Below, one piece after another: positions 31,188-61,949 of a stretch of DNA of 64,000 nt. Where the stretch lies: the NCBI GenBank assembly GCA_973895155.1, contig OZ316891.1, positions 25,047,899-25,111,898 on the forward strand, written 5' to 3'. Position 1 is the first letter of the stretch, and each line of letters opens with the position of its first letter. The notes under the pieces were generated by a model. That model saw only the letters and a list, made by a program, of their open reading frames with translations. It had not been told where the DNA came from and searched no databases. The position numbers and the translations under genes were made by a program. The DNA comes from Marsupella aquatica. Lineage: Eukaryota > Plantae > Marchantiophyta.

Positions 31188-33296
31188 GGGGGTATTTACA
31201 AACGACAGGAACCAGGATACAGTAACAGCAAACAGTTACTGTTACCAGGAGAAATGGAAAAAATAACATGGGATTGAGCTCCATTATTTGGTCAAGAAGT
31301 TAAAAAAACACCATCAATAAACCCCATTTTCAGTCGTTTTCAATACCACCATCCAATTGTCAAGGAAAGTAGGGGCCATTAGAATAAAGGTGTTGCCAAA
31401 AACCGGTGATGGCCAGCGCACAACGCTAGTATGTCGGCAGGGAAGGGCAAAAATTTAGGTATTCATAAAATAACAAAAAAGATGGAGATTCTACGTAACG
31501 TCCATCAAGAAGAGAACAGTAAACTTAACGACCACTAGAAAAAGGCGTTGCAAAAACATGCGGATATTAGCAGCGCCCAACGCTAGTATGCTGGAAGAGA
31601 TTGTCCGTGACATCAATCGAGAAGTGAACACAGGAAACGCAATTTGAAGCATTTCCAACAAAGAGAGGCAATGGCAGACGTTGAATATTTTCAGCGATGG
31701 GCGCTACATTAAATGTCAGACCTCAAGAAATCAACGTCTAAACACGGAATACAATGACCAAAGGCAGCGCTCGGCGCTAGCTCAAATCTAGGAATCAATG
31801 AATGACCATGAAAGAACAAGAGAGCCGATCCAAAAGTGCATTCCTTAATTCCAAAATTGGTCAAAACATATAACCGGTATTACACCATCCGCAGATCATC
31901 TTCAAATCAACCCACGGCATAACATGAACATAAGCAGCGCTCGGCGCTAGCTAAAATCTAGCTATCTTAAATGTAGCCCGCCCTGGCCCGTATGTGCTTT
32001 AGCTCGACCTGAGCCGCACATAACAGGGCCGCTGATCCAAAATGGGCCAAAGATGGAGCAGGAAATACATGAACTTAGAATCACCCATAGAATAAATCCC
32101 ACGGTCCAAGAAGAACAAAAGTAGCGCTTGGCGCTAGCTTAAATGGAAAGCCTATGGCCACTGAAGCTTGTGTCACTGAAACCATCTCCGTCGTGATTAA
32201 CTTTAGCTCTGCGATTGGCAGTCGTCGTCGATGCCCGCCCTGGCACGTCTATGGTTTTGCTTGAAACCTAGACCCCTGAGACGGACATAAGAAGATGAGG
32301 GGCGCTGAAACTCCGAACTCTGATTCCCGAGGTCTGGAACATTTGTATCTAGGAAGTCAACACGTCCCAGTCGCTCTTGTACTCGTAGCTCAATAGGCTG
32401 AATACCATCAGTAGGAACGAGAGAATGAAACAAAAAATGATCAACAACTACGAGCGGAGTGTCCCGGTCATTAATCCAAGGTAAGTTCCTCTCCTCGGGA
32501 CTAATCGCCTCATCATAAGGAAGAGAAAAACGATTCCAGAAGGTCGAGGTCTCGCTGGATGTGTCACCATGAATGGACTCGAAGGAGCTAAAGTGACTCT
32601 CGTCCGGTCAAACTCTGGAAGGAGAAAAGAAGGCAAGCATCTCCTCCAAAGACATGATCTCCTTCTTCTCCATCTAGTGGGCAATGATAAACGCAATCGA
32701 GGCTAATGACAAGACCGGTGGTGTTGAAATGACTCGACTTCGAGAGAGGTTGTGTTTGAAATGACTTGCAAGAGTGACCCAATGGAGAGTTTAGGTTCGG
32801 AGATCAGAAAAAACGTATCACAAAAAGGTTCAACGCAAAAAGGACCATTGAGAAAGAGACGACTGTTCCGGTAGCGACAAAATATGCGGGGCCAAGGAAC
32901 GGACGGAGGATTTAAAATTCGCAATTAGAAAAATAGACGTTTGGGGAGCGCCCGGCGCTAGTAAGGGAAATGAGGAACTTAATCCATTTTATTATCAATG
33001 TAATGTTCCCATTTCAAGAATCCTTTAATTTTATTCCAACAATTTTAAATTCCCAACAAAGAGTCCTCTGATTGTCTTCCATTCTTGCAGCATTCTCAGC
33101 GTAAGAGGGTAACACAAATGGTTTCTCCGGAGTGACAATTTCAAAACGAGCTACCTTTCTTCTGAGTTTGAAGCGTCTTCTCGTATTCCATTCAGACCTG
33201 GGTGAGAACAGAAGTTCGTCAACCGATTGTATGAATGGATATCACAAAGGCATGAAGGAACTGGAAAGGAGAAAGAAGCTTACGAGTTTCAGAACA

Positions 33297-33863
33297 TTAC
33301 TCGGAAGAGTCATCGCTGTCACTCTGGCCAGCGGATTGTTCCTGACCCTTCCCCTCAGGTGTGCCATCCTCATCTTTGTCTGCTGTACCACCACTTGACT
33401 CATCGTCAGAGTCAAAATTGAGTACAGAACGAAGCTTGTCCCTCTTTTTCTTTTCGGGTGGCTGAATTGGGGGTGGCAAAGTTTCGACTTCCTTTGGAGA
33501 AAGTAGATCTAAGAACACCTTGGAACCAGTCTCAACAAAATCTTTCCTATTCTCCACTCCAATTACAAACCTCTTAGAATAGTCTCCAGCTACAAAAGAG
33601 CTGCCCGACCCCATTGTCCAATCCATGAAAATATCCCTAGGACGAGTGATGAGCTCAATCACAGATTGCATGAATCCAACAGACAATCGGGCATTTCCAG
33701 CAAATTCCATCTCAGGTGTTGGATCGACTTTGAGAGAGGGAAGTCCAATTAGATTTGTTATTGAGGGATCTTCGGTGGCAGACAGAGGTCTAAACCTCGA
33801 GTCTTTTGGCACCTTCCCTTTTTCAGACACTCGAGAGAAGACGTCCAGCCTCAGCGTGAAGAT
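33297..33863 (-). CDS. MULE accessory gene, 3' exon: N4/N6 DNA methyltransferase-like SAM-binding half
   Basis: LSVGFMQSVIELITRPRDIFMDWTMGSGSSFVAGDYSKRFVIGVE matches the beta-class MTase pattern P..L...lI...t..gd.vlDpF.GSGtt..aa....R..iG.E. Acceptor TTACAG at 33864 is in frame with the exon ending at 49478. Confidence 0.75.
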   Translation of the reverse strand: MFTLRLDVFSRVSEKGKVPKDSRFRPLSATEDPSITNLIGLPSLKVDPTPEMEFAGNARLSVGFMQSVIELITRPRDIFMDWTMGSGSSFVAGDYSKRFVIGVENRKDFVETGSKVFLDLLSPKEVETLPPPIQPPEKKKRDKLRSVLNFDSDDESSGGTADKDEDGTPEGKGQEQSAGQSDSDDSSE

Positions 33864-33938
33864 CTGTAATATAACCCAAGCAAGGTATGTCAATGGATGC
33901 ATTTGTAGACAATTTTTTAACGGCAAACCAGATGTCAC

Positions 33939-36900
33939 TGTGGTGCGTCCCATGGCTCCCTAAACCCAAGAAACCCCCCAGCTCAAGCCGATTCCCGCAG
34001 GTTTCGTGCTTGGCGAGGCCGTTTCCGCGGCTTAGCGGCATGGGACGCTGCTAACCTTCTACTACTACTATTAACATTTTACACACATATACTGGACAGA
34101 TCCTTCATCGGGTCATGAGATACGTAGCCGGCCTAATATAGGCCTTCCCATGTCTTCCCCTGTCTTCCCCTCCGTCTTGTTAGGTATGTTTGGATTCCGC
34201 CGCCGGAATGATCCCCAATAGGCTTGGTTAAGCCGCTAAGACCTCTCTCAGCTCGACACATCCAACTCTCACTCCCCTGCTTACTTTCCTTCCTTCTGTT
34301 GATGTGGGCACTCTTCACACAAGTTAATGCGACACACAAATAGCAAAATGACTCATTCTGACTGAGTCATACCATGCACTTGCCATACAAACAGTACATC
34401 TCATACACAAGTTCTGCGAACTAAGCCGTGAGGCCAACTCTATTCAGCTCTTAGGCATGAGGAAACATGAATATACACAAGGGTCACTGTATGACTAACC
34501 GAGAGCTTCTCGTACTACTTGATCCCAGCCCGGCTGGTGCAAACTAAAAACTTGCTAAAGAAGAGGCCCTGAGCTCCCCGCTGCCCAGGTACTTATCCTG
34601 GTAGTGGATCCGCCATTCTTTGCATCGTAAGCCTAATCTACTTAACAGTAATCTACTTGCCCGAATCTACCTATGTACAGCAAGGCAGGAGCACAAGTGT
34701 TGCTCCTACCAGTGGGACCGCAATCCCACTAAGCTAAGTGTCAGGGCCGCTCCTGGTTCTGATCCTAATCCTAAACGTGGAGATCCGCGCCCGCCCTGCC
34801 CACTCACGCCTCCTCCCTCCACGTCCGCCCTCCCTAAAAGGAACGGCGCCCTTGCACCGTCACGACACCGGTGGTGGATCCTCAATGGACGCCCCCAACA
34901 CTTCCTCCTCAGCCACTGCCGTTGGCCCGCCTACTGACAGATTACCTGCCCTTGACCGAGTCAACTCTCCATCGGCCTGACTGGGTCCACCTTCGGCTTC
35001 AGCCTCGACACCGGCCTCGGCAATACCCACGGCTTCGGCCTCAGCCACTCCCACGGCTTCGGCTTCAGCCACTCCCTCGGCTTCGGCCTCCCCTTCCCCT
35101 AGGGTAGTTGGATCCTTAGCCGTGACCCTGTCTGGGGTCGGTGCTGGGTCTACCTCCTTGATCACTACGGCCTGTGAAGTCGTATTACTCCTTGACCCTG
35201 AAGGTTTCCGCTTCTTCTTCGTTGGTGGCTCGGCAGCTGGTCCCTTCCCCTTCCCACTTACTTCCGGCACTGGTGCAGTTGGCGCGGCTTGTCCTTCGGC
35301 AATTACCACCCCTGGTAACTGGTTTGTCCCAACGGGAGATGGACCTGCTGCAGCTAAGCATTTAAATACTGCGGCTTGTTTCTTCAGCCGCTCTGTTTGG
35401 TTGTCGGCCCGCCGCTGTAGGTTCTCCATCTTCCTCGTGATTTCCTCCAACTCCTCTTGGGTTTCATCCAGGTCCTTACGTGCCCCCTCCAGCTCGTTTT
35501 TGGCCTCCTCCTGCTCCCTGTGGGCTTCCTCCAATTCCTTCTTCAAGGTAGCCCTCTCCTCCTGGGTTGCTCTTAGCTCCTTGTCGAGCTCTGCAATGAT
35601 GACAGACTTCATCTGGTTCATCTTGGCGTAAGTCTGTTCGAGCATCTCGTCCTTCTCCCTTAGGTCGGCCTTGAAGCTGGCCGTCAGGGACGCAAGCTCC
35701 TGCTGCAGCGCCATAATCCCTTGATAGGATTTCCCTAACTCGACCTCCTTCTGCTCAAGGGCTCCGCGGATTTTCTCGAGCTCCCCTTTCAACGCCCATT
35801 CCTTTCTTTGGGTCTCCGCCATGGCCCGGCTGTTGGCTGTTATGTGGGCCTCCTCTGTATTCTTCAGCTCTTGCTTCCACTTCTCCCTCTCTTTGATCGT
35901 GTCGGCCAACTCTTCCTGCGTCTGAGTCAGTTTATCCTTGATATTCTGATTATCAGCCTGCGCGGTGTCCAACTGCCCCTGCATGATGTTCAGCTCATGT
36001 CGTTTAATCCGCAATTCATCTTGGGCTTTCTTGGCCGCCCTTAGATCTTCAATCTCGGCTTCCATCCTCCTAAGCCGCCGAATGACCTCGTCCTTCTTGC
36101 TTCTCTCTAAAGCCACCGCTTCTTCTAATTGGTGCTTCTCCAACTGCTCCCTATGGAAAAAGGGTCCTACCTCCAACTCCTCTCCAAAGATGCCGAGCGC
36201 AAGTTCCCCACACATCTCACCATACTCCATGGCTCTATTCTTAGCGTAGGTGGAGTAAGTAGAAGTGATCGGCATCGCCCATCGTGGCCTCTGCTCCCAA
36301 GCCGTCCTGCGGATCTCTTCAATCGTGGCTAGAGGTTTGCTTCCTTTTTCGGCTAGCCGCCTGATGTCCTCCGGCCAATCTCCTCCTGGTAAATCCTTTT
36401 CCTTAGCCAGGGCGGCCTCTTCCTCCTGCTTGATTCGCTCCTGAAATTCTTGCACCATCTGTTTTATGCCGTTGAAGCTCGGGGGAGCAACATCTGGTGG
36501 GGGAGACTCAGGGCTACTCTGCTGGTTGGGGTCCCCTCGCACTACCCTTGGAAGTGTGGGGACAAACCGGCCACAGGTCCTTACTCCTGGAACGTGATGG
36601 TCCGACCCATAGCCGGAATTATCATGGCTGCAGTCCTCCACTGCCTCCTCTACCTCTTGGACGTCCGGCTTCTCCCTCTCCTCTTCGTCGATAGGAGCTT
36701 CAGGCAATTCTGCCTCAGATTCGGAGCTTGAGGTTCCCACGTACATTCGAACACCTGGCTTGGATTCCGGCCTGATTCTCTCCTTGTCTCCAGCAAAGGG
36801 GTTTTCTCTTGTGAGCCGGTGTAGGCCTACCTCTGTAGTAGTGTCCTGCATTGTTGCCGTTGCCGTTGTTGTTGCCGATGCCGATTTCTTTTCTTTCTCC

Positions 36901-38598
36901 AGTAGTTTCAGCAGACTCTGCATGCCTGGTTGCTGCATCGGCAAGTCTTCCTTCCTGGGCCTAAACACCTGCTCGATCGTAGGACTAACAGGTGGTTGAG
37001 GCTTCTCAGCCAACGGCCTCGGCGTTGGAGCTTCCTCGGGTGCCCTTACCTACAGGGGAAGTACCGGGGCAAAAGTCTGACTTCTGGCATACCGGCACAA
37101 CAGCGGCATGTGATAGCCAAGCCGCAACACGCTCCCCATGCCGATTACCTGCTGCTCCTCCTTTAAGATCTTCTTCAATTGGTTGAGGAGGTACCCGTTG
37201 TAGTCCCGGCTTGGGTCTGGCCTTTCTGCCAGATAGACCTGTGCCTTGCCGATCTCTGCCCTCGGCAAGTTACAATGCATGGTCACCCGCAAGAAGTCGA
37301 TCATCTCTCCTATGTGCGGGTTGGTGCAGGTGTTCCGGAAGAAGCCATTCTTCGTTGATGGCCCGGGGAACGACCGGAACTCCTTGTCAGGCAAGGTCTT
37401 CCTGGTATCAACTTTGGTCTTATTGCCTATCGGCAGGCCAAACACTTCGGCAATTACCTTGGGAGTAAGATAGAAATCCTTCCCATATATCCTCGTGCAA
37501 TTGGTCTCGGGTTCCCATGACCCCACGAATTCTAATAGGTCTGACTCCGGTACCTCCGGCTTCAGCCATGGTAATCTTACAAAGGCCTCCAAGCCGGATC
37601 CGGCCATGAAGCCTTGGTACTTCTTGGTCTGCATGGCCGTAAAGCATGCATCCTCCTCCCGTGCAAAATGTAGTTGCACCTCCACCGGTAGGGTTGCCGC
37701 CCAGCCCTTCCAGGTGTCATCCCTGGTTGGAATGGCCTTGATGGGATCGACCTCCTCCTCTTCGGCTTCTCCCTGCCTCCTGCTCTGCTGCTCGGCTGGC
37801 TTCTTTGGTGCCGCCGACCTCGTTCTTTTTGCCGGGGTGGCTTCATCGTTGACGGCTCCCTTCCTCTTCATCTCTGCTGCCGTGGAGGTTTCTCCTAGCA
37901 CCGTTGCCCGGGTCCACCTTTCCGTGCTACCCTTTAATTCCCAGTGTATGTCGTTGCAGTTCTTGATGGCCTCTCGGATGCCGACGACGCTGTCTTTGCA
38001 AAACAGAAGATCGTCGAGTTGATTGGAAGTAGGCGTCCACAGGAACTCGTCCTTGATGAGTTTGCCTCCTAAGAAAGCCGTCTTCTGCAGCTCCCACAAT
38101 CGAGCGAGCTCCTGCCGTTCTCGAGCTGCCCTTTCTGATTCCTCGTCCTCGTAAGTCTTGATGTACTCAGTTGCCCGTTCGAACAAGCATCCCCAGAAAT
38201 GTGCCGCTTGATTGACGTTGCTCATACCCTCCTTAGGTTGATCGTCGGTATCTACTCTCTCCCCGAGTGCTTGCCTAAGCAGCTGACAGTAGTTGGCCTC
38301 CCGTAGTCGTCTGCCTAGTTCGTGCTCGCAAATGAGCCACCATCTCCTGCAAGCGCTCCTTACCCCTCTCCTCTGCCGGTCCTTCTTCCCGTTGATCCTT
38401 CCTAGCCGCCGACGCTTAACGCGCCCTAACCCTAATCGGGTTTTCACCCTCAGCCTTACCTCCGGCCTCTGCCCGGGTTCCATGGTTGCCCCTAATTGTT
38501 TATATTTTCCTTGTTTTGTCACTATACTAAGGTGTTCCTAGGGTGCCTTCCTGCTTTACCCACTTAACCGGCTGAGTGATTCCTGTCTAGGCATCACA
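33939..38598 (-). repeat. 3' LTR of element B (4660 bp)
   Basis: TGTGGTGC...GCATCACA; direct repeat of 44823-49458. Confidence 0.97.
34860..38522 (-). pseudogene. LTR ORF split by a CAG>TAG stop at 37050-37052
   Basis: 490-aa and 717-aa ORFs in the same frame, colinear with the 1228-aa protein. Confidence 0.9.
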
Positions 38599-41500
38599 TA
38601 GCTCCCCACTTAATTGTGAAGCGTCCTCGCGAACAACTTCATCTTCGTCCATATAGTATTTCTTGAGGCGGTCATAATGGATGCGAACTGGATATACCTC
38701 TCCCGTAATGTTGGCCAATTGTACGGAGCCATTGGGGAACATCATGGTTACTCTAAAGGGTCCTAACCAGCGAGTGTAAAGCTTTCCTGGAAACCTACTA
38801 TACCTACTGTCATAAAGTAGCACAAGATCACCGGTATGAATACTAACTACTTTTAACCTTTTATCATACTGCTGCTTCATGATATTCTGTCTATATTCTA
38901 CTCTCTCGGCTGAAATCATTCTCGCTTCCTCTAAAGCTTCTAACCTATATTCTCGCTCCTTTAGGCTCTCCTCCGCTGAGGCTCTTTCCTCAATTGTAAC
39001 TTGAAATGTCGGTATCTCAAGTTGCATGGGTACCAGGGCTTCTTGTCCAAAGGTTAAGAAGAAGGGTGTATGACCGGTAGTGGATTTATAGGCAAGATTG
39101 TAAGCAAAAACAGCAGCAAACAATTTATCATCCCAATCGAGTTTGTTCTGAGCTACTGTCTTGTTCAATATCTTTCCTATGATTCTGTTTGCTCGTTCTG
39201 TCAACCCGTTTGCCTTTGGATGGTAGGGAGTAGTAGGCCTATGTTTAACTAAATACTGCTCATTTAAACGACTAATTATATCATTCAAAAAATGGGTTCC
39301 TCTATCACTAACTAATTCTAGGGGTGCTCCATACCTGGTGAAGATCTGCTCATACATGAATCTAGCCGTAGTAATTGCATCATCCTTCGTTGTTGGTCTG
39401 GCCTCTACCCATTTAGTTGCATAATCCGTAGCCAGGATTATGTACTTGTTCCGTCGAGGGTGGGTCAGTGGTTTCAGAGGTCCAATGTAATCAATACCCC
39501 ACTTCTCGAATGGTGCCAGAGGTAGAATAGGGTGCAGTGGATGCCTGGTGGACGCCCTTGGTCCTCCCGCTCGTTGACAAGGATCGCATTGTTTGATAAA
39601 CTGATAGACATCTTTGTGCAAGGTGGGCCACCAGTAACCGGCATTTAATATCTTCTTAGACGTGGTTACTGGGGCAAAATGTCCTCCGGCCTCCTCTCCA
39701 TGCATGGCCCGTAGGACTCGTTTTACCTCTCTCTTTTCCAAACATCTTTGAATCGTGCCGTTGATTCCATGCTTGTGCAGTATGCCTTTAATGCACTGAT
39801 ACTGTCTGACCTTCCGCACAAAGACTGCGGCTTGCTCTCGGCTTAATCCTGGCTGTAATCTGGAAGTGCTGAGAAATTGTAAAATCTCAGGGTACCATGT
39901 ACCAGCTATTTCCACAACGAATAGCTCCTCGTCGGGGAATCGATCATCGATGCAATCCGTGGCAGGTTTACCTGTGATCCTTGAAAAGAAGTCGGCATTG
40001 GCATGTAACTTTCCCGGCTTGATCCTCAGCTCATAGTCAAACTCCTGTAATAGCAAAATCCATCTTGCTACTCTGCCTGTAAGGTCCGGCTTATTGACTA
40101 GGTACTTCAAACTTTCATGATCAGTATGAAAGATTACCTTGTACCCTAGTAAATAATGCCTAAACTTTTTACAAGAATAAATGACTCCTAATGCTTCTCT
40201 TTCCGTGGTAGAGTAGTTCCGTTCGGCATCGGCAAGCTGACGGCTTGCGAAGTATATGGGATGGTCCCTTCCTTTCTCATCCAACTGACTTAGTACTGAG
40301 CCAATACAGAAGCCCGAGACATCTACAAAAACATGAAAATCTTTGTTCCAGTCCGGTGCTATCATGACTGGGGCCTCTACTAACATCTGCTTCAATTCTA
40401 CCACCGCTGTGACTCGTTCGGGTGTGGGTTCGAAGTCTGCTCCTGCCTTGAGCATATTGGTTAATGGTAAAGCCAGCTTGGCAAAATCCTTGATGAACCG
40501 GCGATAGTAACCAATGCATCCCAAGAAGGATCTTACATCCTTTATGTTCTTAGGTTGCATGATATCTAGCCATACTGCTAGCTTACCTTTGTCAATCTCA
40601 ATGCCCTTCCTTGATACCTTGTGACCTAGTAGCACCCCCTCGGTTACTGCAAAAAAACATTTATCTGGGTGTAACTTGAGACCCACCTCTCTACATCTCA
40701 TGAAGGTTTTCCTGAGGTATTTAGCATGTTTCGATGCCTTCCCGAATACTGCAAAGTCATCAATGAAGATTTCCATGAACTTTCTCAAGTAATCATGAAA
40801 AATGTTCACCATTAATCGTTGGAACATAGCTGGTGCGTTGCAGAGTCCAAACGGCATACGATTGAAGACATAGATCCCCCATTCCGTGATGAAGGCCGTC
40901 TTGATTTGGTCTTCCTGCCGAATCCTGATTTGGTTATAACCAGAGTATCCATCCATGAATGAATATAGTTCATGACTGGCTACCATGTCTAGTACCATAT
41001 CAGTAAACGGTAAAGGAAAATGGTCTTTTAATGTTGCTTCATTCAGCTTCCTGTAATCCTGACAAACCCGGATCTTGGGTTTACCATCGGGTCCAGCTTT
41101 CTTGGGAACTATCACAATTGGAGACACCCAGTCTGAATGCAGGACTGGAGTGATGAATCCAGCTTCCACTAGTTTGTCGATTTCTGTTTTGACCAGCAGG
41201 GAATACTTCGGGTTCATCCTTCGAATTGGTTGTCGAAATGATTTGGCTCCTAACATGAGATCAATTTGATGTTCCCCTAGTGTTGGATCTACTCCCTTTA
41301 GATCTTGGTGACTCCATGCAAACACATCCTGAAATTCAATCAATAAGTCACTGATCTCTTTCTCGAGCTCAGGTGCTAGGTTTCTCCCTAAGTTCAGTTC
41401 TCTTCCCTCTCCTAAGTCGAGCTTCCGATATTGCCGTGCTTGGATCATATTAATCTGCTTCTTCAAATTCGGGTCCAGTTCGGCTTCCAGTCTCTCTAAT

Positions 41501-41853
41501 CTCATACCTCCATAAACTGGGATCTCGGCTGGACTAGCCGAGTTGGTCCCTTCCTTGGTGTCCATAGATTGTCCCCCTACCGGTCTATTCGGTTTTGAAT
41601 TAGTGGTCGGCTCCCCTTCCTGCCTTGGCTCTAGATCGTGTCTGTCCATCTCATCCACCTCTTGCTCCTGAGAGTTAGGCCGCTGTGCTCTCTCGGCTTC
41701 TAATAGGGCCTCAATTTGTTCTGCCCTCGTAATCGGCTTGTATGCCGATCCCTTGGTATTTAATTCCTTGCCGATGATCGATGGCGTTGTGGACCCCGTC
41801 GGCTCTGCCACAACGCCTGCAGAAAATCCACTGTCCCTGCTACTGCTCCCCAC
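38587..41853 (-). CDS. pol: pol: reverse transcriptase, RNase H, integrase
   Basis: WVSPIVIVPKK, DYRKLN, MPFGLCNAP, FIDD, RNase H DVS...EREAL...TDH, HHCC zinc finger, DDE core, GPF motif. No in-frame ATG at the 5' end. Confidence 0.97.
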   Translation of the reverse strand: MGSSSRDSGFSAGVVAEPTGSTTPSIIGKELNTKGSAYKPITRAEQIEALLEAERAQRPNSQEQEVDEMDRHDLEPRQEGEPTTNSKPNRPVGGQSMDTKEGTNSASPAEIPVYGGMRLERLEAELDPNLKKQINMIQARQYRKLDLGEGRELNLGRNLAPELEKEISDLLIEFQDVFAWSHQDLKGVDPTLGEHQIDLMLGAKSFRQPIRRMNPKYSLLVKTEIDKLVEAGFITPVLHSDWVSPIVIVPKKAGPDGKPKIRVCQDYRKLNEATLKDHFPLPFTDMVLDMVASHELYSFMDGYSGYNQIRIRQEDQIKTAFITEWGIYVFNRMPFGLCNAPAMFQRLMVNIFHDYLRKFMEIFIDDFAVFGKASKHAKYLRKTFMRCREVGLKLHPDKCFFAVTEGVLLGHKVSRKGIEIDKGKLAVWLDIMQPKNIKDVRSFLGCIGYYRRFIKDFAKLALPLTNMLKAGADFEPTPERVTAVVELKQMLVEAPVMIAPDWNKDFHVFVDVSGFCIGSVLSQLDEKGRDHPIYFASRQLADAERNYSTTEREALGVIYSCKKFRHYLLGYKVIFHTDHESLKYLVNKPDLTGRVARWILLLQEFDYELRIKPGKLHANADFFSRITGKPATDCIDDRFPDEELFVVEIAGTWYPEILQFLSTSRLQPGLSREQAAVFVRKVRQYQCIKGILHKHGINGTIQRCLEKREVKRVLRAMHGEEAGGHFAPVTTSKKILNAGYWWPTLHKDVYQFIKQCDPCQRAGGPRASTRHPLHPILPLAPFEKWGIDYIGPLKPLTHPRRNKYIILATDYATKWVEARPTTKDDAITTARFMYEQIFTRYGAPLELVSDRGTHFLNDIISRLNEQYLVKHRPTTPYHPKANGLTERANRIIGKILNKTVAQNKLDWDDKLFAAVFAYNLAYKSTTGHTPFFLTFGQEALVPMQLEIPTFQVTIEERASAEESLKEREYRLEALEEARMISAERVEYRQNIMKQQYDKRLKVVSIHTGDLVLLYDSRYSRFPGKLYTRWLGPFRVTMMFPNGSVQLANITGEVYPVRIHYDRLKKYYMDEDEVVREDASQLSGELCDA
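38599..38612 (-). promoter_or_regulatory. Polypurine tract, element B
   Basis: TAAGTGGGGAGCTA abutting the 3' LTR. Confidence 0.8.
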
Positions 41854-44753: not shown

Positions 44754-44800
44754 TACCTACGCTTCCGTTCTAACTTCATATCTCACGGCTTAAGAAATGC

Positions 44801-44818
44801 CCCCTCCATCTAGCGCCA
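44801..44818 (-). promoter_or_regulatory. Primer binding site, element B
   Basis: TGGCGCTAGATGGAGGGG, 4 nt from the 5' LTR. Confidence 0.85.
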
Positions 44819-44822
44819 AAAA

Positions 44823-50181: not shown

Positions 50182-50332
50182 CTGTTCAAGTGGATATCGA
50201 CGTGATACCCGTCAATAAAGAGACAACGACAATGCTAACGCCCAGTGCTGGCCAAACTATCATAAGACTTGGCCTTAAATATACATCTTTCCAAGTAATA
50301 AATACCAATTCAGTTTCTAAAACGTTGACTCT

Positions 50333-50483
50333 CATAACAGCGCCGGGCGCTAACAATGTAACAGATTTGGACTCCCATAGCAGCGCCGGGCACTAACAAT
50401 CTAACAGATTTGGACTCCCATAGCAGCGCCGGGCGCTAACAATGTGACAGATATTGACTGCCATAGCAGCGCCGGGCGCTAAC
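50333..50483. repeat. 43-bp tandem repeat x3.5 in an intron, each unit carrying the AGCGCCNGGCGCT motif
   Basis: CATAGCAGCGCCGGGCGCTAACAATGTAACAGATTTGGACTCC units. Confidence 0.92.
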
Positions 50484-51737
50484 CAAAGGAAACAAATTAT
50501 ACTTACGTTTTTTCCCAGATCTTGTTGATTCACTTGGGGCCGTAGTATCTGCTTTTGCTTTGGCGCGAGGCTTCCTGCTTCGGTCAACATGAACTATTGT
50601 TGTCTCGCATATTGTTTGCAATTCTGTTGTGGATTGATCCACATCATCCGGAATCCCCTGCTTCATGTCAGAAACAACGTTGACTGGGATCTGGGACTTA
50701 GACAGCTTATGGAAAGCATCCTTTTCTCTGTGATCAAAGGGCGAGTCCCATCTATCTGTATCCAGGTACCATGGACAATGGGTTCTCTCCCATTCACTCA
50801 GAGGTCTTGCTGGAAAAATTCCCTCGATAGGATACATAGAATACAATTCAACTAAAGAATTACTCTCCGGTATGACAGTCCACTTGAGGAAGGCGGCGGG
50901 ATACGCCCAGAAGTAATCAGGATTGGTAGCCTCCATGTGATGTAAAAACGGTAGAGATACCGTTTTGCTCGCTTCTGGTTCTTCAAAGAGTAATCCTCTT
51001 TGTCAGGATACTTCGAGGGCCACATTGTATTAAAAAACTTACCCTTGACAGAGTCACCGTATTTCCTAAAATCATTCGTAACTATTTCAATGAGAGATTC
51101 GAATGATTCACATGCCCAATCTTGTAAGCGATTCACGGGAATGGTTTGTTGGACGTCTCGTAGAGCACATTGCAACATCCCCACCGCAATCCCTTCTACA
51201 TTATTCCATGTAATCCAAGTGTGACACCACTGTTTCACTGGATCATCATTGACGCTATTCGGATGGAAGAATTGTCTCTGGAGCTCCGGATTGCAATGTG
51301 CTACAAGCAAAGTACTTCGTAGCTTGGCGTCAAGAGCCAAAACAGCTGTAAAAAGCCTGGCCCGGTCCATGGTACACAACACGGTATCTGGCTTCTTCTC
51401 TTGCTTATTCCTCTCCGTGACAGCATACATCTCTGCGCACGTAGATAGAAAGTCCTCAAACTCTGGACTCAGCAAAGGAGTGATTTTCGAGGTCTTAACT
51501 GCCCATTCCTTGGTTGCTTCATCATAACGGCATGCCTTCTGGAAACCTCCTCGACCGACCAAGGGGTACTGAGGGCCGCAGCGGACTCCATGTCAATCTT
51601 GAACTGGTTCGAATACGACTTAATCTTATCCTGACATAGAATGTACAAAAGAGCCTCCTGAGGCATCTTCTTTGTGTACCAGGATCCTTTTCGCGTCTTC
51701 ACCCTGATCTGCTCAAACTTCTTGTAATTTGCAGGGT

Positions 51738-54700
51738 TGTCATGCCGCTAACCTGGGCCTTAAATCCAGTTTAGTGTCATGGTGCGACCTCGACCACCAG
51801 TAGGGGTGAGGGTTCGGGCAAGGAGGTGTGCAGTGACCTCTATTAGCCCTAAGTCGGGCTAAGTCGATAGACTTACTGGTATAACACCTGCGTAATTCGT
51901 ACTAGTCATAGGTATATTTGTTTTCCATCGCTGGAATATTCCCTCAGTTAGTGACTCGGACTAACTCCCGGCTTGGGGCCTTTCAAGCCATCGACACGAC
52001 AGGATCTTGTGACATACAATGAGTGGCAATCCCTACCATTAGTTCGCACCCGGTACGTCCCTTAAAATGGCGCCTTTACCCAGACAAAGCATACACACAA
52101 CACCAGTTACTTGCGGAAACATTAGGGGGAAAAGACTACATTTATCAGCGAAGCATCAGTTTACATGGTTGACTCGACTTCAAAGGGGGTCAGCAGGCCC
52201 AACGGCAGTCGATGCCCAGTCTCTACGAGGCCCTGCCTCGCACTTGCCCAGCAAGCTCGACTCTGGCTCTCACTCCTTGGTGTGCTCTGACCCTGCTCAG
52301 GCCGGGACTCCCCGTGCCTCACCTTTCTTCTGTTGAGATAACTAAGCCTTCTCCCCGGACCATAGCGGAAGGGGAAGCCTAAATACTACAATCGTGGAGG
52401 AGAGCCGGAGGATACTGCCTTCTGGGATACTACCTACTGACTAAATTACCTACTGACTACTGGCCGCGCCGCACTGACTGGTTGACCGTCAACAACAAGG
52501 TGCCGACCGGGATGGCAGCGGCCAAGCCTACTGACAAATTCTAGTCCATTGATGGACTCCATCCTACGTTGGCTGATCCTAACTGATCCGGCCCTAATTC
52601 TTCTTACTGCCGCTAATCGGCGCCTAATGACAGTCATGCTGCCGTTACGCCTAACCAAAAGATGCCGCTGACTTAACTGCCTCACGCGGCGCCTGCTTCC
52701 ACCCTTTGCTAACCACCCCTTACGTGTGTGCAGTGGTTGGACCAGGGCTGGTCCCCTTGTCGGGACGAGACCTCGAGCCGCCTTGATCAGAGGTGGGCCT
52801 AGGTTTTCTCCGCTGGAGGATGAGCAGGGTAATGCGGTCCTGCAAGGCCTTGTTGTCCCGTACCGCCTCCTCCGCCTCATTTGCAGCTTCATCGGCTTCG
52901 ATCTGGAGCCGCGCTACCTCCAGATTGAGTTGGTCGATGGAGTTGCGATGGATCTGGTCCTGCGCCAACAATTTATCTCGTTCGGCGGAGAGACTAGCCA
53001 CCTGTTGTGCTGCCTGCAAGAATTGTTTGTTGAGGTCGGTCAAGCTGGTAACCCGAGCCGAAGATTCTAAGCGTAATTGAAGCACGGTGTCATCCAGCTT
53101 CTTGAGTTCGGCCTGCGCTCCGCTTAACTCTTGGGTTAGTCCGTCCCTCTGTTCGACGGTGCAGACTAACTCCTCGCGGCGGGTTGTTGCCTCCTCCTCG
53201 AGGTGCTCTACCAGCATATGGAGGCGCCCGATCTCATTCCCCTTCGCCATGAGTTCTTCTTCCAAGCGACTTACGATCCGTGGTTGGTGCTCTAACATGA
53301 AGAAGGCTGGTTGAAATTACGCCGAGACTTGTTGTCCGATGTATGTTGCCAGCTCCCCAGACATAGTCTGGCTAAACTTTTGGACTAGGTCGTAGGCCAT
53401 GGTCCCCGGGGCTACTTGGTAGTCCTCCATCCTCTCGGGTATCGGTGGGTCCTCGGGTGGAGCAACGATCTCCTCTGTAGTCAGCGCTGGGGAGGGGAAG
53501 ATATCTTCAGGTGGTGGAGGGATTGGGGGTGGTTGTACTGCGGGTAGTGGAGGCTCAACAGAAGGGGGCGGCGGAATTTCCACAGGAGGAGGTGGCGGAG
53601 TATTAGTCGGGGCTTCCGGCTTGGGGTTTGCCCGAGGGACGGTAGTCCGCGTGCTCGGGGTTGCCTCCTCCGGGGCGAGGGTGACTTTAGCCGAGGCTGA
53701 GGTGGCCATATTCTTTCCTCAAGCCTCTCGCCGTGCCTTGTACCAGGCGAGGATAATGGCGATATGACTTCCTAAGTAAGTCTTCCCCCCAATAGCCATA
53801 CCACCCTGAGCCCGCTTCAGCTCCCCCAAGAATCTTTGGTAGAAGAATTGGGCCCAGTTTCATCGTTTGTACTGTTCCACCTGCACGATCGTGCAGAGGG
53901 AAATCTCGGATCGTGGCTCAATCATGTGTAGGGTAGTCCGTATGAAGTTAAGCCGCTCCATACAGGTTAAGTTGGTGCATGCCCCTTGCTTGTATCCGTT
54001 GTCCATCTTACCCTCGGGTTTGAAGTGCCGCGGCGTATACTCCTTATCCCGAATTTGGATTTCCACCGGCACTGGCCCGGTTGGTAGGCAGAAGATTTGC
54101 GTTAACCGATGCTCCGTGAGTGATAAGGCCTACCCCGAAACCTTGGTGGTCGACGCGTCAGTGTTGAAATTGGAGATAAACTCACAAATCTTCTTCGGCC
54201 CGGTGGCGCACGGCCTCCAAAGCAAGTGAGCGAACTGCTCCAACTGATGCTCCTTTAGATAGTCCGCATGTTCGAGTTTCTTGATTGCAATCCAGACTAC
54301 TTCGGGGACGCGGATTACCTGTAATAAGTTGGACTTCGGGTTATCCGGGGGCCGTCGGGTCTGGTTGGTCGGGGGGTTTACCGGGGCAGGTGCAGGCGCG
54401 GCGTTGGTCCGCGTTGTTGATTTGGGGGCCGTCGTAGTCCTTGGCCGCTTACGAGGACGCTGTTTGAGTTGCGGACTAGCTTCCTCGGAACCCGAAGAAC
54501 ACTTTGTGTTGATTACTGGACGGACTTGGCACTGGTGGTATCGGGGTAGCCATATCCCAGTTGAAGGTGTTGGAGCTTTCCCCGAGGAACGTAAGATTAC
54601 GCGCCGCTTCCCGTTGTTTGCTGATGTCTTCTTGGCGCTTTTCGGCTGCGATCTGCTGGTCTAGGTACCCTGGAATCTTGTCGAACTCCGCTTGAGTAAG

Positions 54701-55548
54701 CCGCTGGCTGCCCTTTAGCTTAAAGAACTTCGCTGGAACCTCAAGAATCGCCTCAGCTACTGATCTAAGCCCTTCCTCGCTGAGATATAGTTTGGTGATG
54801 TAGTCTCGCAGCTCGTTGTAGCTGGAATCCTTGGTGATGGCTGTCCTTTCGCAATTAACCAGTGCTACCTTGGTCACTAGCTTCGCGTATCTTCGTTCGT
54901 AAGCGGCTTTCTCGGGACAAGAGTACCAGTAAGTTTCGGAGAACTTAGCACCTACCTCGCCAAACAAGGTCCAAAATCCCAAGGCTGTGAGGGTCATACT
55001 AACCTCATAGTCCGGTTTGAGTCCGCGTTCCCACCCGGCTGGTCCTCTTTCTCGTGGAGGCCTCGCTCGTCCTGACTAAATCTCGCCACATTCCGCTCTT
55101 CTCCCTCGATAATCTCCTTGTAAAGGTCGACTCGATTCGATCAGCAGGGCAAGTGGGTGGCAACGTCCGCGAATTCAAAAAAGGGTAGACATGAGCAAAT
55201 GGCCCGCAGCACCATCGGCTCCTCTCTTATGGAGGTGTCAGGATGAGCCCGAGCGTGAGAAGGCCAGGCCGTTTTAGTCATTGATAACAAGCTGAAGTCG
55301 GCACCTCGGTCCAAGCGTGATTCTTCTAACTGATTTTTACTCCGCTGCCGCCACCGTACCTCGGTCGTGCGTAATAATCCTCTTCCTGAACTCATAATTA
55401 TTCGGTCATTTTAACCTACTCCTAATCTATTCATAATGGCAACAGACGGCTACATGTGCTATTCTACGCTATGGCTACGGTCCTAATGCCCGTATAAGGC
55501 CTAATCTACGACCTGGGTTCCGTTAAGTGACACGTTACCCGTGTCACA
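51738..55548 (-). mobile_element. Solo LTR (3811 bp), family 3
   Basis: TGT...ACA termini with an AGGGT TSD on both sides; no gag or pol. Confidence 0.92.
52720..54997 (-). pseudogene. Decayed LTR-encoded ORF, family 3
   Basis: NGYKQGACTNLTCMERLNFIRTTLHMIEPRSEI aligns with family-2 NGFFRNTCTNPHIGEMIDFLRVTMHCNLPRAEI; Pro-rich linker; coiled coil at 52720-53298. Confidence 0.85.
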
Positions 55549-55783
55549 AGGGTCGATAGCTTACTATAGTACTCCAGGTTGTGCATCAAGATCCGCTTAA
55601 TTCGATTGGCATCTAGGATCCAGGAGGGTTCCACAACTGCTTGTCCTAGCCTGAAATAAAAGAATGAAATGAGAACATATAAGCAGTGCCAGGCGCTCGC
55701 AAAACATGGCCTCGGAAAGTTATGCTAGAAAGAATGAACAATTCATAATGACTCACAAAGTTCTGCACAAAAGGGTATCTTAC

Positions 55784-56520
55784 TGGTTAACGGTGTGCAT
55801 AGCCGCTTCAATTTCTATCAGCGAACCCTTGTCGCCATTGAAAACAGTACAAAGCACATGCGGGTGGTACTTTGGGTTTTCGGGACTCTCTTGAGTGACA
55901 AGAGTCCACGAGTAAAGCCTACGGTTCCCATCAAAAACTGAGAACATTCTGTCCTTCAAAACTAGAAAATCTGGGTCGGCAACACATTCTTCCTCGAATT
56001 TCTCGTTCTCAGATGTCCATATTGGATCCCAACTCTCACGAATTTCTTGAGTACAGGTGAGAAGCGCTCCCTCAGCATCGGTAGGCTGAACGTAAAACCT
56101 CATTCCAATCAAAGAATTGTATCCCATGCTACGGAAAGAGTCTTTTAGCTTGTCAATGGAAGAACTGTCTTTCTGTAGAGTTCGGACAACCTCCATACGC
56201 AACAATCGACATAGTGGAATTCGTGGAGGCTCTTTGTCAAACCCTCTGAAATCCTTCCCAAACAACATGACATGTTTCGAAATAAGATCCGTCTTGGAAA
56301 ACAAAACATCTTGAATCGCAAATGTGTCAAGATTCTTCATCTTCTTTCTCGCTGGTTTGGCAAACAAAATACTTGAGATTGGAACAAGCGATGCGGTGGA
56401 CCTTGTTACTCGACGCGTATACACTGAACCAGAGAATGAAGACTCAGAAGACTCACAATACCCACGATCCTGAGCCCCAACCACACTATACCCCCTCGAC
56501 GAGGAGGGGATTGCATCCAT
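55784..56520 (-). CDS. MULE accessory gene, exon 1: ParB/sulfiredoxin-like domain
   Basis: IPLCRL...VVRTLQ...IDKLKDSFRSMGY and FSVFDGNRRLYSW match the ParB-N layout (R......i..L..Si...G; (I/V)DGxxR). Donor GTAAG at 55783. Confidence 0.7.
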
Positions 56521-57444
56521 CGTCTTTACGATGAAAGGTGTACGAACGGAATCCTCACGACTAATTACCAGTTCTCCGTACCATATTAACAGTTGCGTCC
56601 ATATTATATCCGATCAATGAGCGCTATTCCCCTCTTTGTAATCGGTTGGAGAGACGTTACTCATTGCGAACGACAAGATTCAATTTAATTTATCAGTGAC
56701 GGAAAGCGACAACTTAGAAATTGCGATAAGTATTAATGTGAACTACGGTAAAATGTTTGCGTGATAATCACGTTGAACATTAGTTACCGTTAAAAGTTAC
56801 CGTTGTCTCAGCACCTTGCAGACAAACATGCAATGCCAGCGCCGGGTGCTAACGAATAAGAGACTACCAAATTGAAGAACTTATTGGTGAACAAATGCTA
56901 GCGCCCAACGCTAGCCATTTGAATAATTTCATTAACGTTCTTTTAAGCAACATATATTGTCAACAAATTCCTAAATGTACCTGTTTCACCTGTAGTAACC
57001 AAACTTTACTTAATATTATGAGATTAAGTTTATTGTATCAATACCAGCGCCTGGCGCTAGCAAAAAATTACTGTATTTGCATCAATATTTTGTGTGTAAT
57101 TATGCTAGCGCCAGGCGCTAGTCAGAATACTTTTCAAATTATATCATTGTTATTCCAATGGCTTTTAGGTAGCGCCCGACGCTAATGAAATGGACGCACT
57201 TGTATAGACTACTATCTAGTCGTATTCATGTAATAAATATTCCTGACACCCGCACTTGACGGGCAAAAATGACAAATGTATCATTTATGATTTCAACGGA
57301 CACAAAGTTGTGCGTGTTCTATGTCGTATTGAAACATCTCTTTCAACGGCCGATGGTCCTTGAAGGGTGTTATAAGCACAAGAAATACGGTTGGGATTGG
57401 TCTATTGCATGAATTACTGCTGGCCTAAACTTCTTTCGTCTACA

Positions 57445-60400
57445 ATGTCGCGCTCAATTGTTATTACACGTGCTTGTACCCGGGAAGTCGTCAAAGTTCC
57501 CATGCAGGAATCTGATACTTACAGGCAAGTAAGCGAGAACTATCTGTGCGGAAGATTCGATTTGAGAATCAATGACATTCTGTCGATTGTTCCTGAGGTG
57601 TCATCGAGTGGAGGACATGACCCAGATGCGGCATTTGATGTGGATGACGGAATATGTTTCTGGCACATGAATGTAGGACTTCGTTACATGCTTCATGTCA
57701 GACCTACTCCTCTTCAATCGGTTGTTCAGGACATTCCGCCCCAGGTTGTTGAAATATCTGAGAGTGAAGATGAGGAAGTTGCGCCCAATCCTCCTGAGAA
57801 GCACAAAGCTCCAAGCTCTAGTTGCCTTAAGAGTGAACCGGTGGCCACTTTCGGAGATGTCCAGAAGGTTTACCGGCGGAGTGCAATGGACGCCTTACTC
57901 AAGGCCACAGGCCATAGTGAATTGTCAATATTTATCTCGGCAGGGGACTTTCGACACGATCAAGTTCCTTGTTTGCCAAACAAGTACAATGGAAATATTG
58001 TATTTGAATTGCCTCCCATTGTGGGAATGCAGTCCAAAGGATCTAGACTTCGTGACATGGACCGTGCCAAAGATTGTTACATTTGGACCAGGATTTTTCC
58101 GACGACCGCAAACGTGCAACCAAAAAAACTTTGGGAGTTTGGTAAAGTCAGTTGTACTGGGTTCGTCGAGTGCAGGAACAAGTCCTGTGAATATTTTTTG
58201 CGAAAGAAGAGATGCAATTCTAAAGCGTGGGCTGGTACCCCTAAGCTTAGTGGCCAGCATGTGGTGGGTTCGCTCATTGAAGAGGGTGGTATAGTATGTC
58301 ACTACTGTGAAAAGATTCCTTTTTGTGTGGACTCTTGCCCTGCTTGCTTGTTCTATATGTATCCACAAGTCCTACTTGATACAGAAACCTAGTCACATGT
58401 CTCGGCTCGCGGTACATATAGGTGAACATAATCATCCGAGTAGAAAAGTTTTCTCGAGGAGTGCTGAAAAGATGGCCGAGGACTTAATAAAAAGAAATCA
58501 CAAAGCCAATCCTCTTGCAAAACCGACTGGGATTTTGAATTCGGCGACTGGTTTGCTTGTGAAAGCTCTTTGCGAGAACGTTGACGACATCGTAGATATT
58601 GAAGAAACCGAAATTTGGAAGTCTCTCATGGTTCTATCTACTCCTCAGAAATTTGCGTCCCTTTGTCGCAGCGTTCGAATGGACCAGGCTGGTCGTGGTG
58701 AGTTAGATTTCCTAGCTCGAATGCAAAGGTCAAATAATTTCTTTTCTCCAAAGGTATCTTCTTCCGGGTCAGGGTTGTTTAGCAGATCGTCCACACATAT
58801 TCAAAATGTCAGTCAAGGGTCATGGATCTGGTGTCAATCTTTTACGTCAGATGCAACCTGGCGGAAGACTGGAAGGGGCTTGGGTGAGTTTTGATGTCAT
58901 GAAGCGAGTGATAACCGACTGGTTTACTTTTAGCGCACACGTTTACGATCACAACTTTCGAGCTCTTTGTACAATATTCACATGCGAACTAAAAGCTGAA
59001 GACACAGAGTCCTTTGAGAAGGCATGGAGAATTATGATAGAGGTTTCTAAGGAAAATGGGTTACATGAGGTTACCATTCAAGGTTTTATGGCCGACAATG
59101 CTCAGGCTGGATGGATTGCCGTTTGCAATGTCTTTTTTGGGGGTCACCCAGACCCTGAACGTGAATGCTTCGATGCATTCCACTTTTACCAGTCTTTCCA
59201 TCGACATTCCACAGAGGGAGTACTCGAGGGTAGGCAACCTGAACATCTAAGACTGTGGGAGAAATTGCGAAATGCTCCATCATTCGTTGCTGCGTACCGA
59301 GTTTCTAGGGAGATTGTGTTATGGTGGCAAGCAGGCAACTGTGTTCCAGGAAAACTGATGATGTTGCAGAGTTGGATATCATGGTGGGTCGTTCGATGGC
59401 GTCAGTGGGGGAATTTCATTTGCGTGGTAAGTTTTATCAATGTTTACAATAGTCACTTCGCCAGGTTTTTTACTAGCGCCAGGCGCTGCTTTTAACTGTA
59501 CAGATGCCAACATTATATTAGTACATCATACACAATGCTAGCGCCTGGCGCTGCTTTAAACTGTACAGAGAACTTTGCCACATTCATGACTTATGAACAC
59601 TTGATAATACCAACATTACATTAATGTATATTATATACATTGCTAGCGCCTGGCGCTGCTTAAACAAATTGACTAAAGTTGGTCTAGATCCACTTCATTG
59701 TAGAGCAAAAGTGCAGAAGAAGGTGCCCTCATTCCAAACTGTACAGGTTCTGAGTCAAGGCACGCTTCAATGAAAGCATGGGCAACCAAAAAATTGGTGG
59801 GCCTCTTCGAAGCATGCGAAGTTGATCAAAATCGGGCTATATCTCAAGTTGCAGGTTACAGTGCATATCGAAAAGGACTCGATAGAGGGAAGGGGCCAAC
59901 TATCTGGGAATTGGCATTCCGTTCGGCAGACCAAGCAGGTTCACCCAAGTTATTCGAAGAGGCCACTAACATGATTCTTTCCAACTCTGCCAATTTTGAT
60001 CTGGGTAGGAATTCTCCTCTGAATGGAGATATTGTCACCAAATCGGTTAAGAGGAAGGGACTTGCAACTGGGATTGTCTCGCCACAAGACTCCCATCGGC
60101 ATGACACCATTCTCATCACTACCCCAAATACTCGAGGATTCAAACGGAAGAATCTCAACAAGACTGAGTTCACTTCCATTCCCGCCAATGTAGTAGATCT
60201 TGTAGTAGACCTCTGCGGGAGTGACACTTCAACAAGTGAAAGCTATTCCCTGGCAAACACCCTTGAAGCCACGAGGGAAACAACATCATCTCAACAACCA
60301 CGCAGTGCCCCCGCTGTGGTTCAACGTTTGCCGACAGAATCAGCTCCATTGGAAATGGATGTTCCAAGAGGAAGCTGGCATTTGAGACGGATGGCCAAAT

Positions 60401-61229
60401 ATGGGGCTGGGCCACAGTGTAATGGGACCTTGCATGGAAATTCTGACAGAGATGAGTGTCAAAATCGTGTCAAGAAAATAGGGTTCCATTCTGTTGCCGG
60501 TGTTGTCGGCATTGTTGTCAACGGACATCGCATTTTTAGAGGAACTCCCATTGCCGAAATGATATGGTTCTGCCCAAACAGCACATGCTACAAGAGCCGC
60601 CCGCGTCGTGGTGTTGAACGCCTTCCTCCTGTGCCGGACATCTTGCCAGTTGTGAAAGGAACAAACCTCTTGCCTAGCGAGATAGAGTACCTTCAAGCGC
60701 AGGGAGTCTCTATGGTCCAAACAGCTGCGCCCTCTCGAACTTGAACTGCACCATTTGCATTCGACTTGAGAATCAATGTTAACACATTTCCAGAGAAAAT
60801 CAATTTTGCGGAGCCCAACGTGCGCCTTCGTAGCAGGAATGGGAGGAACTCCAGACCTCGCTCTAATCTAACTGTGGCTCATAGTAAACGAATGGAGTCG
60901 GCTCAAAAAGAAGCTATGACTCTGGATGGAGAGTGGGATGTGATTAGTGGAATTGCTTATGGGAAACAATTCAGAATACGGACTCACGAGACCTTCGATC
61001 GCCAAACACTTACTGTGTCCAAATGTGCATCTTCCCTACTTGTTCCTGTGAGGATTTCTTCCGTCGTCATTCCCGCGGCAAGCCATATATGCCCTGTAAA
61101 CATTTGTACTGGGTGTTCATAAATGTCTTCAAGTTTCATGTAGAGGAGTCTACCCTGTGTAGCCAGTCGATTTTGACAGTTGGAGAAGTCAGACTTGTGT
61201 TGGAGAGGCACAACGCAAATGGTTTATAG
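57445..61229 (+). pseudogene. MULE/Mutator DDE transposase with GCM/WRKY-like zinc domain and C-terminal SWIM finger (disrupted)
   Basis: C..C....C / GEHNHP; VSFD...FMADNAQA...CFDAFH; in-frame phase-0 intron 59427-59703 joining to NCTGSESRH; CSCEDF...PCKH. Three frameshifts and one in-frame stop. Confidence 0.88.
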
Positions 61230-61949
61230 AGGGACTCGATTTATCCTTAACTGTCGTATTCCATAACGGATACTATGTTGTTTTGTCTTTAGTCAACGGA
61301 TATTACTTTAGTTTTTTATGTGGTTTTGGTTAGCGTCGGGCGCTGGTCAATAACTTATTTATGAAATTTTGTTTTTTGTGGTTAGTGCCATTGGATGGTT
61401 CCATAAGCTTTTATTATCGTCCCATTATTCTGCGTACTTAATCCTTTGTTAGCGCCTGGCGCTAGTTTCACACTCTGCCTGACATATCCCTATGTTTCCG
61501 ATAACATAATTCAGTCCACAACTGGCTTTGTGGTGGGTCCCGCCTGAGCATACTCCATTCCTCCATGGGTATTATGGTTACGATTTTTTTAACCACACTA
61601 ATGAAGTATATGAACTAAATGAAGCATTTAAAAGTGGACTGTTTAGAAATGTTGTTGTATATAAACAGCAGTGAATTGAATGACAACCCTTTTTTATCTA
61701 TAATCTGAGCAAGTGACAAGGGATTGGAACCTCTCCGAGCAACTGTGAGCACACTTTTCCCTTATATCTGACGTCGTGTCTTATGCCAGTAGGAATATTT
61801 TTAGCTTAAATATGTGGTTGTTCCTTACGTGAATTTTTGAAAAACTTTGCCAAATAGTACACCTTTACAATAACAATTTCCTGTTACCAGGAGAAATTAC
61901 CTGGTAACAGGAAAACTGTTTCCTATTTCCTGTCTCCACTGCTATACCC

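Follow-up and report, generated by a model that had tools for sequence, protein, structure and literature searches.

We found that a 13-bp palindrome, AGCGCCNGGCGCT, recurs in the predicted non-coding DNA of one Mutator-like DNA transposon (Mutator-like element, MULE) of the liverwort Marsupella aquatica and that, judging from comparisons among family copies and with a distant relative, this palindrome is under selection. The element occupies 31189..61949 of a 64-kb stretch of contig OZ316891.1 (hereafter, the window) and consists of ~11.4 kb of native DNA plus two nested insertions. It carries two divergently oriented genes: gene A, its transposase, and gene B, which is predicted to encode an accessory protein with a ParB-fold domain and a methyltransferase-like domain. 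We lean toward a reading in which the palindromes are sites for this accessory protein and resemble the bacterial parS sites and KorB operators. The initial annotation of this DNA had proposed a dimeric binder and given it no name; the element's own gene B is the best candidate.

Near-exact palindromes are confined to predicted non-coding DNA of the element

The window holds 10 exact copies of the palindrome (mean 0 and maximum 0 in 100 shuffles) and 21 copies with up to two mismatches (mean 1.68 and maximum 5 in the shuffles). All 21 are within the native DNA of the element; at this threshold, we found no copy in the satellite that surrounds the element, in either nested insertion, in the 28.5-kb left flank or, overall, in the 52.6 kb of the window outside the native element. 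Moreover, the predicted non-coding parts, which make up ~4.25 of the 11.4 kb of native DNA, hold 21/21 of these copies.

The initial annotation had listed 23 positions, and all 23 hold the motif. Seven are in the left arm (31415..32959; sites 31415, 31572, 31693, 31766, 31936, 32123 and 32947), where they form two duplicated groups with a spacing of 157-187 bp. Five are in predicted intron 2 of gene B (50182..50506, minus strand; 50237, 50339, 50382, 50425 and 50468), four of them in a 43-bp tandem repeat, and one is in predicted intron 1 (55651..55783, minus strand; 55685), where relatives have the consensus base at which this copy deviates. The divergent spacer between genes A and B, which we refer to as the promoter (56665..57268), holds five (56838, 56900, 57046, 57107 and 57171), the transposase intron (59427..59703, plus strand) three (59475, 59540 and 59645) and the right arm (61332..61463) two (61332 and 61451), the last ~490 bp from the element end.

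The motif had been described as found only in introns and spacers; this holds for the near-exact copies, and gene B intron 3 (~92 bp of native DNA) has none. Its reported absence from exons and long terminal repeat (LTR) elements likewise holds at up to two mismatches and fails at three, where 14 matches are off the element's own DNA (nine in the left flank, five in the nested Ty3 element) and one is in a transposase exon, at 57807. Judged by count alone, the two listed 3-mismatch sites, 31415 and 50237, do not rise above background, and they are not significant on their own.

The motif is best written AGCGYY-N-RRCGCT. Per half-site, only 5 of the 20 deviations are in the outer four bases, which are nearly fixed, and 15 are in the inner two; 18 of the 20 are C>T or G>A. 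The 30-bp flanks of the sites have 36% G+C. An extension to TAGCGCC.GGCGCTA, described earlier as frequent, is exact at only 2 of the 23 sites (57107 and 61451); at most sites, only one of the two sides has the T. When each site is oriented by the sense strand of its closer gene, the core is preceded by T and followed by G at 14/23 sites; two are reversed (C before, A after; one of these is symmetric in relatives), five are symmetric and two are unclassified. Since duplicated sites are not independent, they were grouped, which left a polarity of ~8 groups vs 1. L002, a distant relative of the element, has its outer GC pairs 14 bp apart, and so does the asymmetric form. A search for the exact 14/15-mer in viral contigs was uninformative, with one site per locus in the best 80 of 121 loci.

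The core is conserved while its flanks diverge

Amplification of the motif had been attributed to local duplication. This was borne out for intron 2, where the 43-bp tandem unit is present in 3.7 copies that are 91% alike, and for the transposase intron and the left arm, where the far flanks of neighboring sites are 53-57% and 47-73% alike, respectively (random 99th percentile, 47%). In the promoter (five sites, flanks 10-40% alike) and the right arm (two sites, 23%), the flanks are at chance level. Local duplication thus accounts for only part of the sites, since those in the promoter and right arm lack duplicated flanks. In the duplicated groups, the cores are 92-100% alike and the far flanks 20-87%.

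The element belongs to a multi-copy family, with contigs 80-99% alike in 4/4 runs. In the promoter, we found that only one of 37 variable places is in the 65 core bases, relative to 5.3 expected (P 0.019), and this lone difference restores the consensus. For G/C bases alone, 0/49 core places vary vs 18/120 flank places (P 0.002). These counts are based on 40 of 61 difference rows, at 37 places, and differences can go unnoticed where contigs stop close to a motif, as they often do. The variant sites 56900 and 57171 showed no family difference in the same 40 of 61 rows; hence, AGCGYY is apparently tolerated family-wide. Joints in family contigs, within the transposase intron and the promoter, suggest that units carrying the motif have been gained and lost.

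Of 78 candidate metagenome stretches, one, L002, proved to be a relative, and its transposase is 58% identical. The same intron in L002 has three copies of TATTGCTAGCGCC|GGCGCTAGCAATA, which is the same half-site (TAGCGCC) with no spacer base; among strict sites, the spacer is 1 at 17/17 in the window and 0 at 2/2 in L002. The only alignable segment of the two transposase introns is the 19-nt motif, and their global identity is 49%, relative to a mean of 46% and a maximum of 50% for shuffled sequence. Hence, with cores nearly invariant among family copies and the half-site kept in distant L002, we conclude that the site is under selection. The earlier statement that the core outlasts its flanks is sustained inside the duplications, among family copies and across L002; decay of the core as fast as its flanks, which had been named as the outcome that would count against selection, was seen neither among family copies nor in L002.

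One intron copy in L002 is at the center of a perfect 60-bp inverted repeat (L002:1172-1231), which suggests template switching that extends the palindrome.

Gene B is predicted to join a ParB-like fold to a methyltransferase-like domain

Four exons were predicted for gene B on the minus strand, from 56664 to 33297, with splice sites placed from GT..AG and homology. Predicted exon 1 (55784..56664) encodes a ParB/sulfiredoxin-fold domain with a DGNRR motif and has a premature stop near its 5' end. Predicted exon 2 is interrupted by the second nested insertion: its first part (55549..55650) was recognized by homology to family proteins, and its second part (50507..51737), which encodes a helical middle region and is frameshifted, by tblastn to family proteins. 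Predicted exon 3 (49478..50181) contains the start of the methyltransferase-like domain, with YLPTG at the motif IV position (mostly DxP[TS]G in the family), and predicted exon 4 (33297..33863) covers its C-terminal half, which resembles beta-class amino-methyltransferases and includes the S-adenosylmethionine (SAM)-binding motif I, DWTMGSG.

Relatives of gene B include 32 Riccia sorocarpa proteins and 378 cluster representatives at E <=0.001. Twenty were looked up: four are from Riccia, two from Calypogeia fissa and five from Adiantum, nine are without an organism name, and none of the 20 is named as algal.

The exon-1 domain was modeled with a pLDDT of 88.8, and its top Foldseek rows are ParB, Noc and KorB (E 0.009-0.08, prob 0.91-1.0), and also sulfiredoxin. 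Its best VIA match is KorB (Z 7.3, rmsd 2.8, 92 residues aligned); 6/13 VIA rows are titled ParB, KorB, Spo0J or sulfiredoxin, and the other seven presumably have the same fold. The nucleotide motif [DE]GNHR is present in 76/90 family members, with DGNRR in the element copy, and its G..R is kept in 80/90. Pfam gave no ParB family match on exon 1, and sequence searches of the PDB, for which exon 1 and profiles A2, A3 and A5 served as queries, gave no useful match. HHalign of the gene B profile against KorB found no match even for the ParB domain, and so this comparison had no power. A match of exon 1 to an inovirus-like viral contig was rejected as a chance match.

The C-terminal part has the beta order, with SAM-binding motif I after motif IV. 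Pfam N6_N4_Mtase (PF01555) matched at E 9.5e-5, under the curated cut-off, and matched a Riccia member (P0143) at E 3e-5 over profile positions 2-212 of 221, just under that cut-off. Exon 4 matched M1.HpyAVI (E 3.5e-5), with DWTMGSG aligned to DPFMGSG, and gene B matched the PHROG methyltransferases (phrog_67, E 8e-9). The motif IV of active beta-class amino-methyltransferases, (D/N/S)PP(Y/F/W), was not found, with YLPTG in the element copy. Among 40 aligned members, D is first in 33, P third in 36 and T/S fourth in 37, and an aromatic residue is fourth in none; one fern protein beyond these 40 has DVPF. Kinship with Marchantia DN4MT1 was dropped, since DN4MT1, in the accessible part of its description, has TSPPY and no extra domains.

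Two Riccia gene models (P0077, E 3.6e-20, and likewise P0061) fuse a transposase piece to a gene-B piece, which suggests, at the level of predicted genes, that the two are linked in Riccia. Judged by language-model features in the Atlas, residues 140-560 of another Riccia relative of gene B (P0016) adjoin fungal DUF3723 clusters (0.95-0.97). As a lead only, DUF3723 proteins, a conserved cargo family of Starships, may be ParB-like accessory proteins too.

The element is Mutator-like and this copy is dead

The earlier assignment of the element as Mutator-like was upheld by the Atlas match of a transposase relative and by DDE, DxxH and SWIM-like motifs. Gene A exon 1 (57269..59426, plus strand) encodes a Mutator-like transposase (D..D..DxxH) and is frameshifted; exon 2 (59704..61226, plus strand) encodes the candidate catalytic E and a SWIM-like zinc finger, with stops and frameshifts inside. 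Support for the intron between them, 59427-59703, comes from L002 and from two runs whose contigs apparently skip from GT to AG. Five full-length relatives of gene A are 58-67% identical in the catalytic part. For one of these (P0035, 66% identical), the first Atlas match is a MULE cluster (0.95, 172 shared features), and 10/10 best family matches agree. Pfam SWIM matched gene A at E 0.015 (15.3 bits, under the 19.6 cut-off), and the Pfam scan of the transposase gave no MULE family match.

Target-site duplications of MULEs are ~9 bp (8-11), and MULE ends are G-rich and may or may not have long terminal inverted repeats. Here, 8 bp (9 bp with one mismatch) of satellite, TACCACCG, are duplicated at 31181..31188 and 61950..61957 (plus strand), and the element ends, GGGGTAT...ATACCC, are G-rich with a short degenerate inverted repeat. 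Contigs without the element (loose ends) join to satellite sequence at 61950. Short subterminal repeats on CCTGGTAACAG / CTGTTACCAGG are present at both ends (31210-31250 and 61875-61935); as putative transposase sites, they are more promising than the 13-mer.

Neither gene is intact in this copy. The element turned up in no listed RNA dataset, which carries no information about its expression. Relative to its relatives, it has 36 near-fixed differences (from the 40 best-supported of 1526, with four partial ones dropped), of which 19 are of C-to-T type in the copy; 12 of these 19 are in CG, a context that holds 17% of cytosines. Hence, the copy was likely methylated and is decaying; we regard it as dead and as decayed through CG deamination.

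What reads the palindrome

The palindrome is kept letter for letter, is spread through non-coding DNA and is off the ends of an element that encodes a ParB-fold protein; hence, it is most simply that protein's site, and on balance we favor this reading. A dimer of the gene B protein would read two AGCGYY half-sites, as ParB reads parS and KorB reads OB, would be gated by the nucleotide bound at its GNxR motif and would act over neighboring DNA. Such action would require that sites be placed away from the ends, in introns, arms and promoter. Local duplication would add sites, and the spacer change (1 bp in the window, 0 in L002) would make subfamilies specific.

The outcome, for which there is less support, would be protection from host silencing by 5-methylcytosine, as VANC proteins give VANDAL elements. 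We prefer this outcome because the sites are placed like those of VANC; repression as by KorB is possible instead. Protection could be conferred by an amino-methyl mark or, because motif IV is without the usual aromatic residue, by binding of a weakened or dead enzyme. The CCNGG in the motif center was dropped as a target for N4-methylcytosine, since variant sites common to the family and L002 are without CCNGG.

Several points weigh against a role of the gene B protein at the palindrome. The exon-1 fold scores are middling, with no Foldseek E <=0.001 and Z <8, no helix-turn-helix was found among the fold matches, and the full-length model is poor (pLDDT 39.8); some ParB-fold proteins without a DNA-reading head or helix-turn-helix are not DNA clamps, according to the accessible text of one study (PMC12704722). 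Motif IV is without an aromatic fourth residue in 40/40 aligned sequences, and this copy is also without D. L002, at 2078 bp, has the transposase alone, so that motif and gene B are seen together for one family only. The polarity of the flanks follows transcription and is not expected of a symmetric dimer site, and VANC-type sites diverge fast between families, whereas the half-site here is deeply conserved. Finally, the CpG observed/expected ratios (0.78-0.81 in the element, 0.85 in nested insertion 2) show no sign of element-wide protection.

It is unlikely, in our view, that the sites bind the transposase itself, through its Cys/His-rich N-terminal part, either for autoregulation or, given the degenerate terminal inverted repeats of the element, to assemble a transposition complex. 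Subterminal repeats bound by transposases are common, the inverted repeat at the element ends is no more than short and degenerate, and L002 ties the motif to the transposase gene only. However, the sites nearest the ends are 227 and ~490 bp away, 14/23 are in introns or the central spacer, and the motif is absent from the terminal repeat.

We give still less credence to hairpins of RNA or single-stranded DNA (acting in splicing, small-RNA production or as cruciforms), or to by-products of template switching, with no protein reader. One L002 copy is in a perfect inverted repeat with 29-bp arms (RNA fold z -12), a second forms a 26-bp palindrome (z -4.0), and the sense-strand flanks, T...G, would give a U-G closing pair. 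In the window, however, where three sites were folded, one of them on both strands, 3 of the 4 folds did not surpass shuffles (z -0.7 to -1.1). There is no compensatory change: C>T or G>A accounts for 18/20 deviations, and in the sense direction the deviations are about evenly split between 10 that keep and 8 that break the pairing (hand count). Family copies keep the exact letters, beyond mere pairing.

A host transcription or chromatin factor, whose sites the element would have gathered for expression or protection, is a shade less probable again: the deeply conserved half-site fits a slowly evolving host protein and five sites are in the divergent promoter, but the switch from 1-bp to 0-bp spacing at all sites of L002 is hard to fit and other repeats in the window are without the site.

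With the gene B protein as the reader, a broader proposal, which we regard as doubtful at present, is that Mutator transposons of seedless land plants operate a sliding clamp of bacterial style that is gated by a nucleotide. In this scenario, the ParB-methyltransferase-like protein would load as a dimer at parS-like palindromes in introns and promoter and spread to mark the element or protect it from silencing, with the spacer between half-sites setting subfamily specificity. If true, eukaryotes would have a parS/ParB system, and plants a second, independent anti-silencing design beside VANC, with possible kinship of the clamp to the DUF3723 cargo of fungal Starships. The element offers a defined site that is conserved over long distance and has a natural spacer variant, together with a large liverwort and fern protein family; the idea of binding and anti-silencing is thereby directly testable in a land-plant model, and the element may reveal how a few non-coding sites suffice for anti-silencing to reach across its whole length.

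Relation to known systems

The comparisons in this section draw on the accessible parts of the cited texts. The closest gene architecture is that of Sola1-1_Ec32 of Ectocarpus, whose accessory gene encodes ~1100 amino acids with ParB-like and N4C/N6A methyltransferase domains, is on the strand opposite the transposase, and is proposed to encode a protein that binds and modifies its own transposon (PMC12477816). Gene B likewise has an N-terminal ParB-like domain and an N4C/N6A-type methyltransferase-like domain and is opposite the transposase. It differs in that the transposase of the window is Mutator-like, the relatives of gene B are in liverworts and ferns, and its motif IV is altered. In the text seen of that paper, no binding site is named, and 'palindrom' has no match in its main text (PMC12477816).

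In Plavaka of Bostrychia, PAG3 is a ParB-like accessory protein whose best match is 7BNR; inverted repeats were proposed as its sites, and PAG3 homologs were reported in Mutator elements of Chondrus (bioRxiv 10.1101/2025.02.11.637652). 7BNR is also the top Foldseek row for gene B exon 1. PAG3 joins ParB to a 2-oxoglutarate oxygenase, with a separate methylase gene and tandem repeat arrays beside the gene, whereas the window has one fusion protein and single palindromes spread over introns, arms and promoter.

The VANDAL/VANC elements of Arabidopsis are Mutator-like, with degenerate ends and an accessory gene; the short VANC motif is in introns, intergenic and terminal regions, where tandem duplication has multiplied it and copies differ by gains and losses (PMC5735166, PMC10398659). 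Similarly, the motif of the window has been amplified by tandem repeats in non-coding parts (the 43-bp unit). In contrast, VANC motifs are 8-9 bp, non-palindromic and fast-changing between families (PMC5735166, PMC10398659), and the motif here is a palindrome. We found no match to a VANC-type Pfam family in gene B pieces or relatives; the domains recognized in gene B are a ParB-like and a methyltransferase-like one.

Palindromes are where ParB and KorB load, and both act at a distance, KorB from its palindromic operator (PMC11790492); fusions of ParB to an N6_N4 methyltransferase are a frequent phage architecture (PMC12704722). Gene B shares the ParB/Srx fold with a G-x-x-R motif, a putative nucleotide site. 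Unlike ParB/parS, KorB/OB and the phage fusions, gene B is eukaryotic and intron-containing, has no ParA and has a long helical insert between its domains. The site would thus work like a parS site or KorB operator and be placed like VANC sites, a likeness to both systems that need not mean membership in either. The KorB operator quoted in PMC11790492 (TTTAGCGGCTAAA core) has the TAGC start and one-base center of our motif, which is probably a coincidence.

Literature searches for a ParB-methylase transposon found no land-plant case among the papers listed, although supplements of the Bostrychia paper may show similar layouts, and the accessible part of Iyer et al. 2016 (PMC4738411) has no such land-plant transposon. 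ParB-fusion accessory genes are already published for algal transposons, once with inverted-repeat arrays; what is new here is a land-plant case with a defined, testable site.

Other features of the window

Just downstream of site 32947, a minus-strand frame of ~155 codons with one internal stop (32203-32672) is possibly a third small gene of the element; its longer part had no Pfam match. Both nested insertions have TG...CA ends and 5-bp duplications. The first, a Ty3-type LTR retrotransposon in gene B intron 3 (33939..49458, minus strand), has 4.66-kb LTRs and the duplication GTCAC. It is ~98% like a second Ty3-type element at 8827-21658, which also has 4.66-kb LTRs, and each of these LTRs has a minus-strand open frame of up to ~1240 codons with a weak coiled-coil match only. 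Diverged fragments of the Ty3-type element are at 5891-6812 and 26261-27429. The second insertion, in gene B exon 2 (51738..55548; 3.8 kb, duplication AGGGT), appears solo-LTR-like and has several minus-strand frames; it probably belongs to another family and represents a solo LTR that contains a gene.

The ~577-bp satellite (28558-31188 and 61950-64000) is strongly CpG-depleted (0.23-0.31) and has very high depth in the runs, and an 83-bp tandem array is beside it at 27825-28248. Amid retroelement sequence, a minus-strand frame of 414 codons (7438-8682) has a match to an NIF/FCP1-like phosphatase (Pfam E 2.5e-15).

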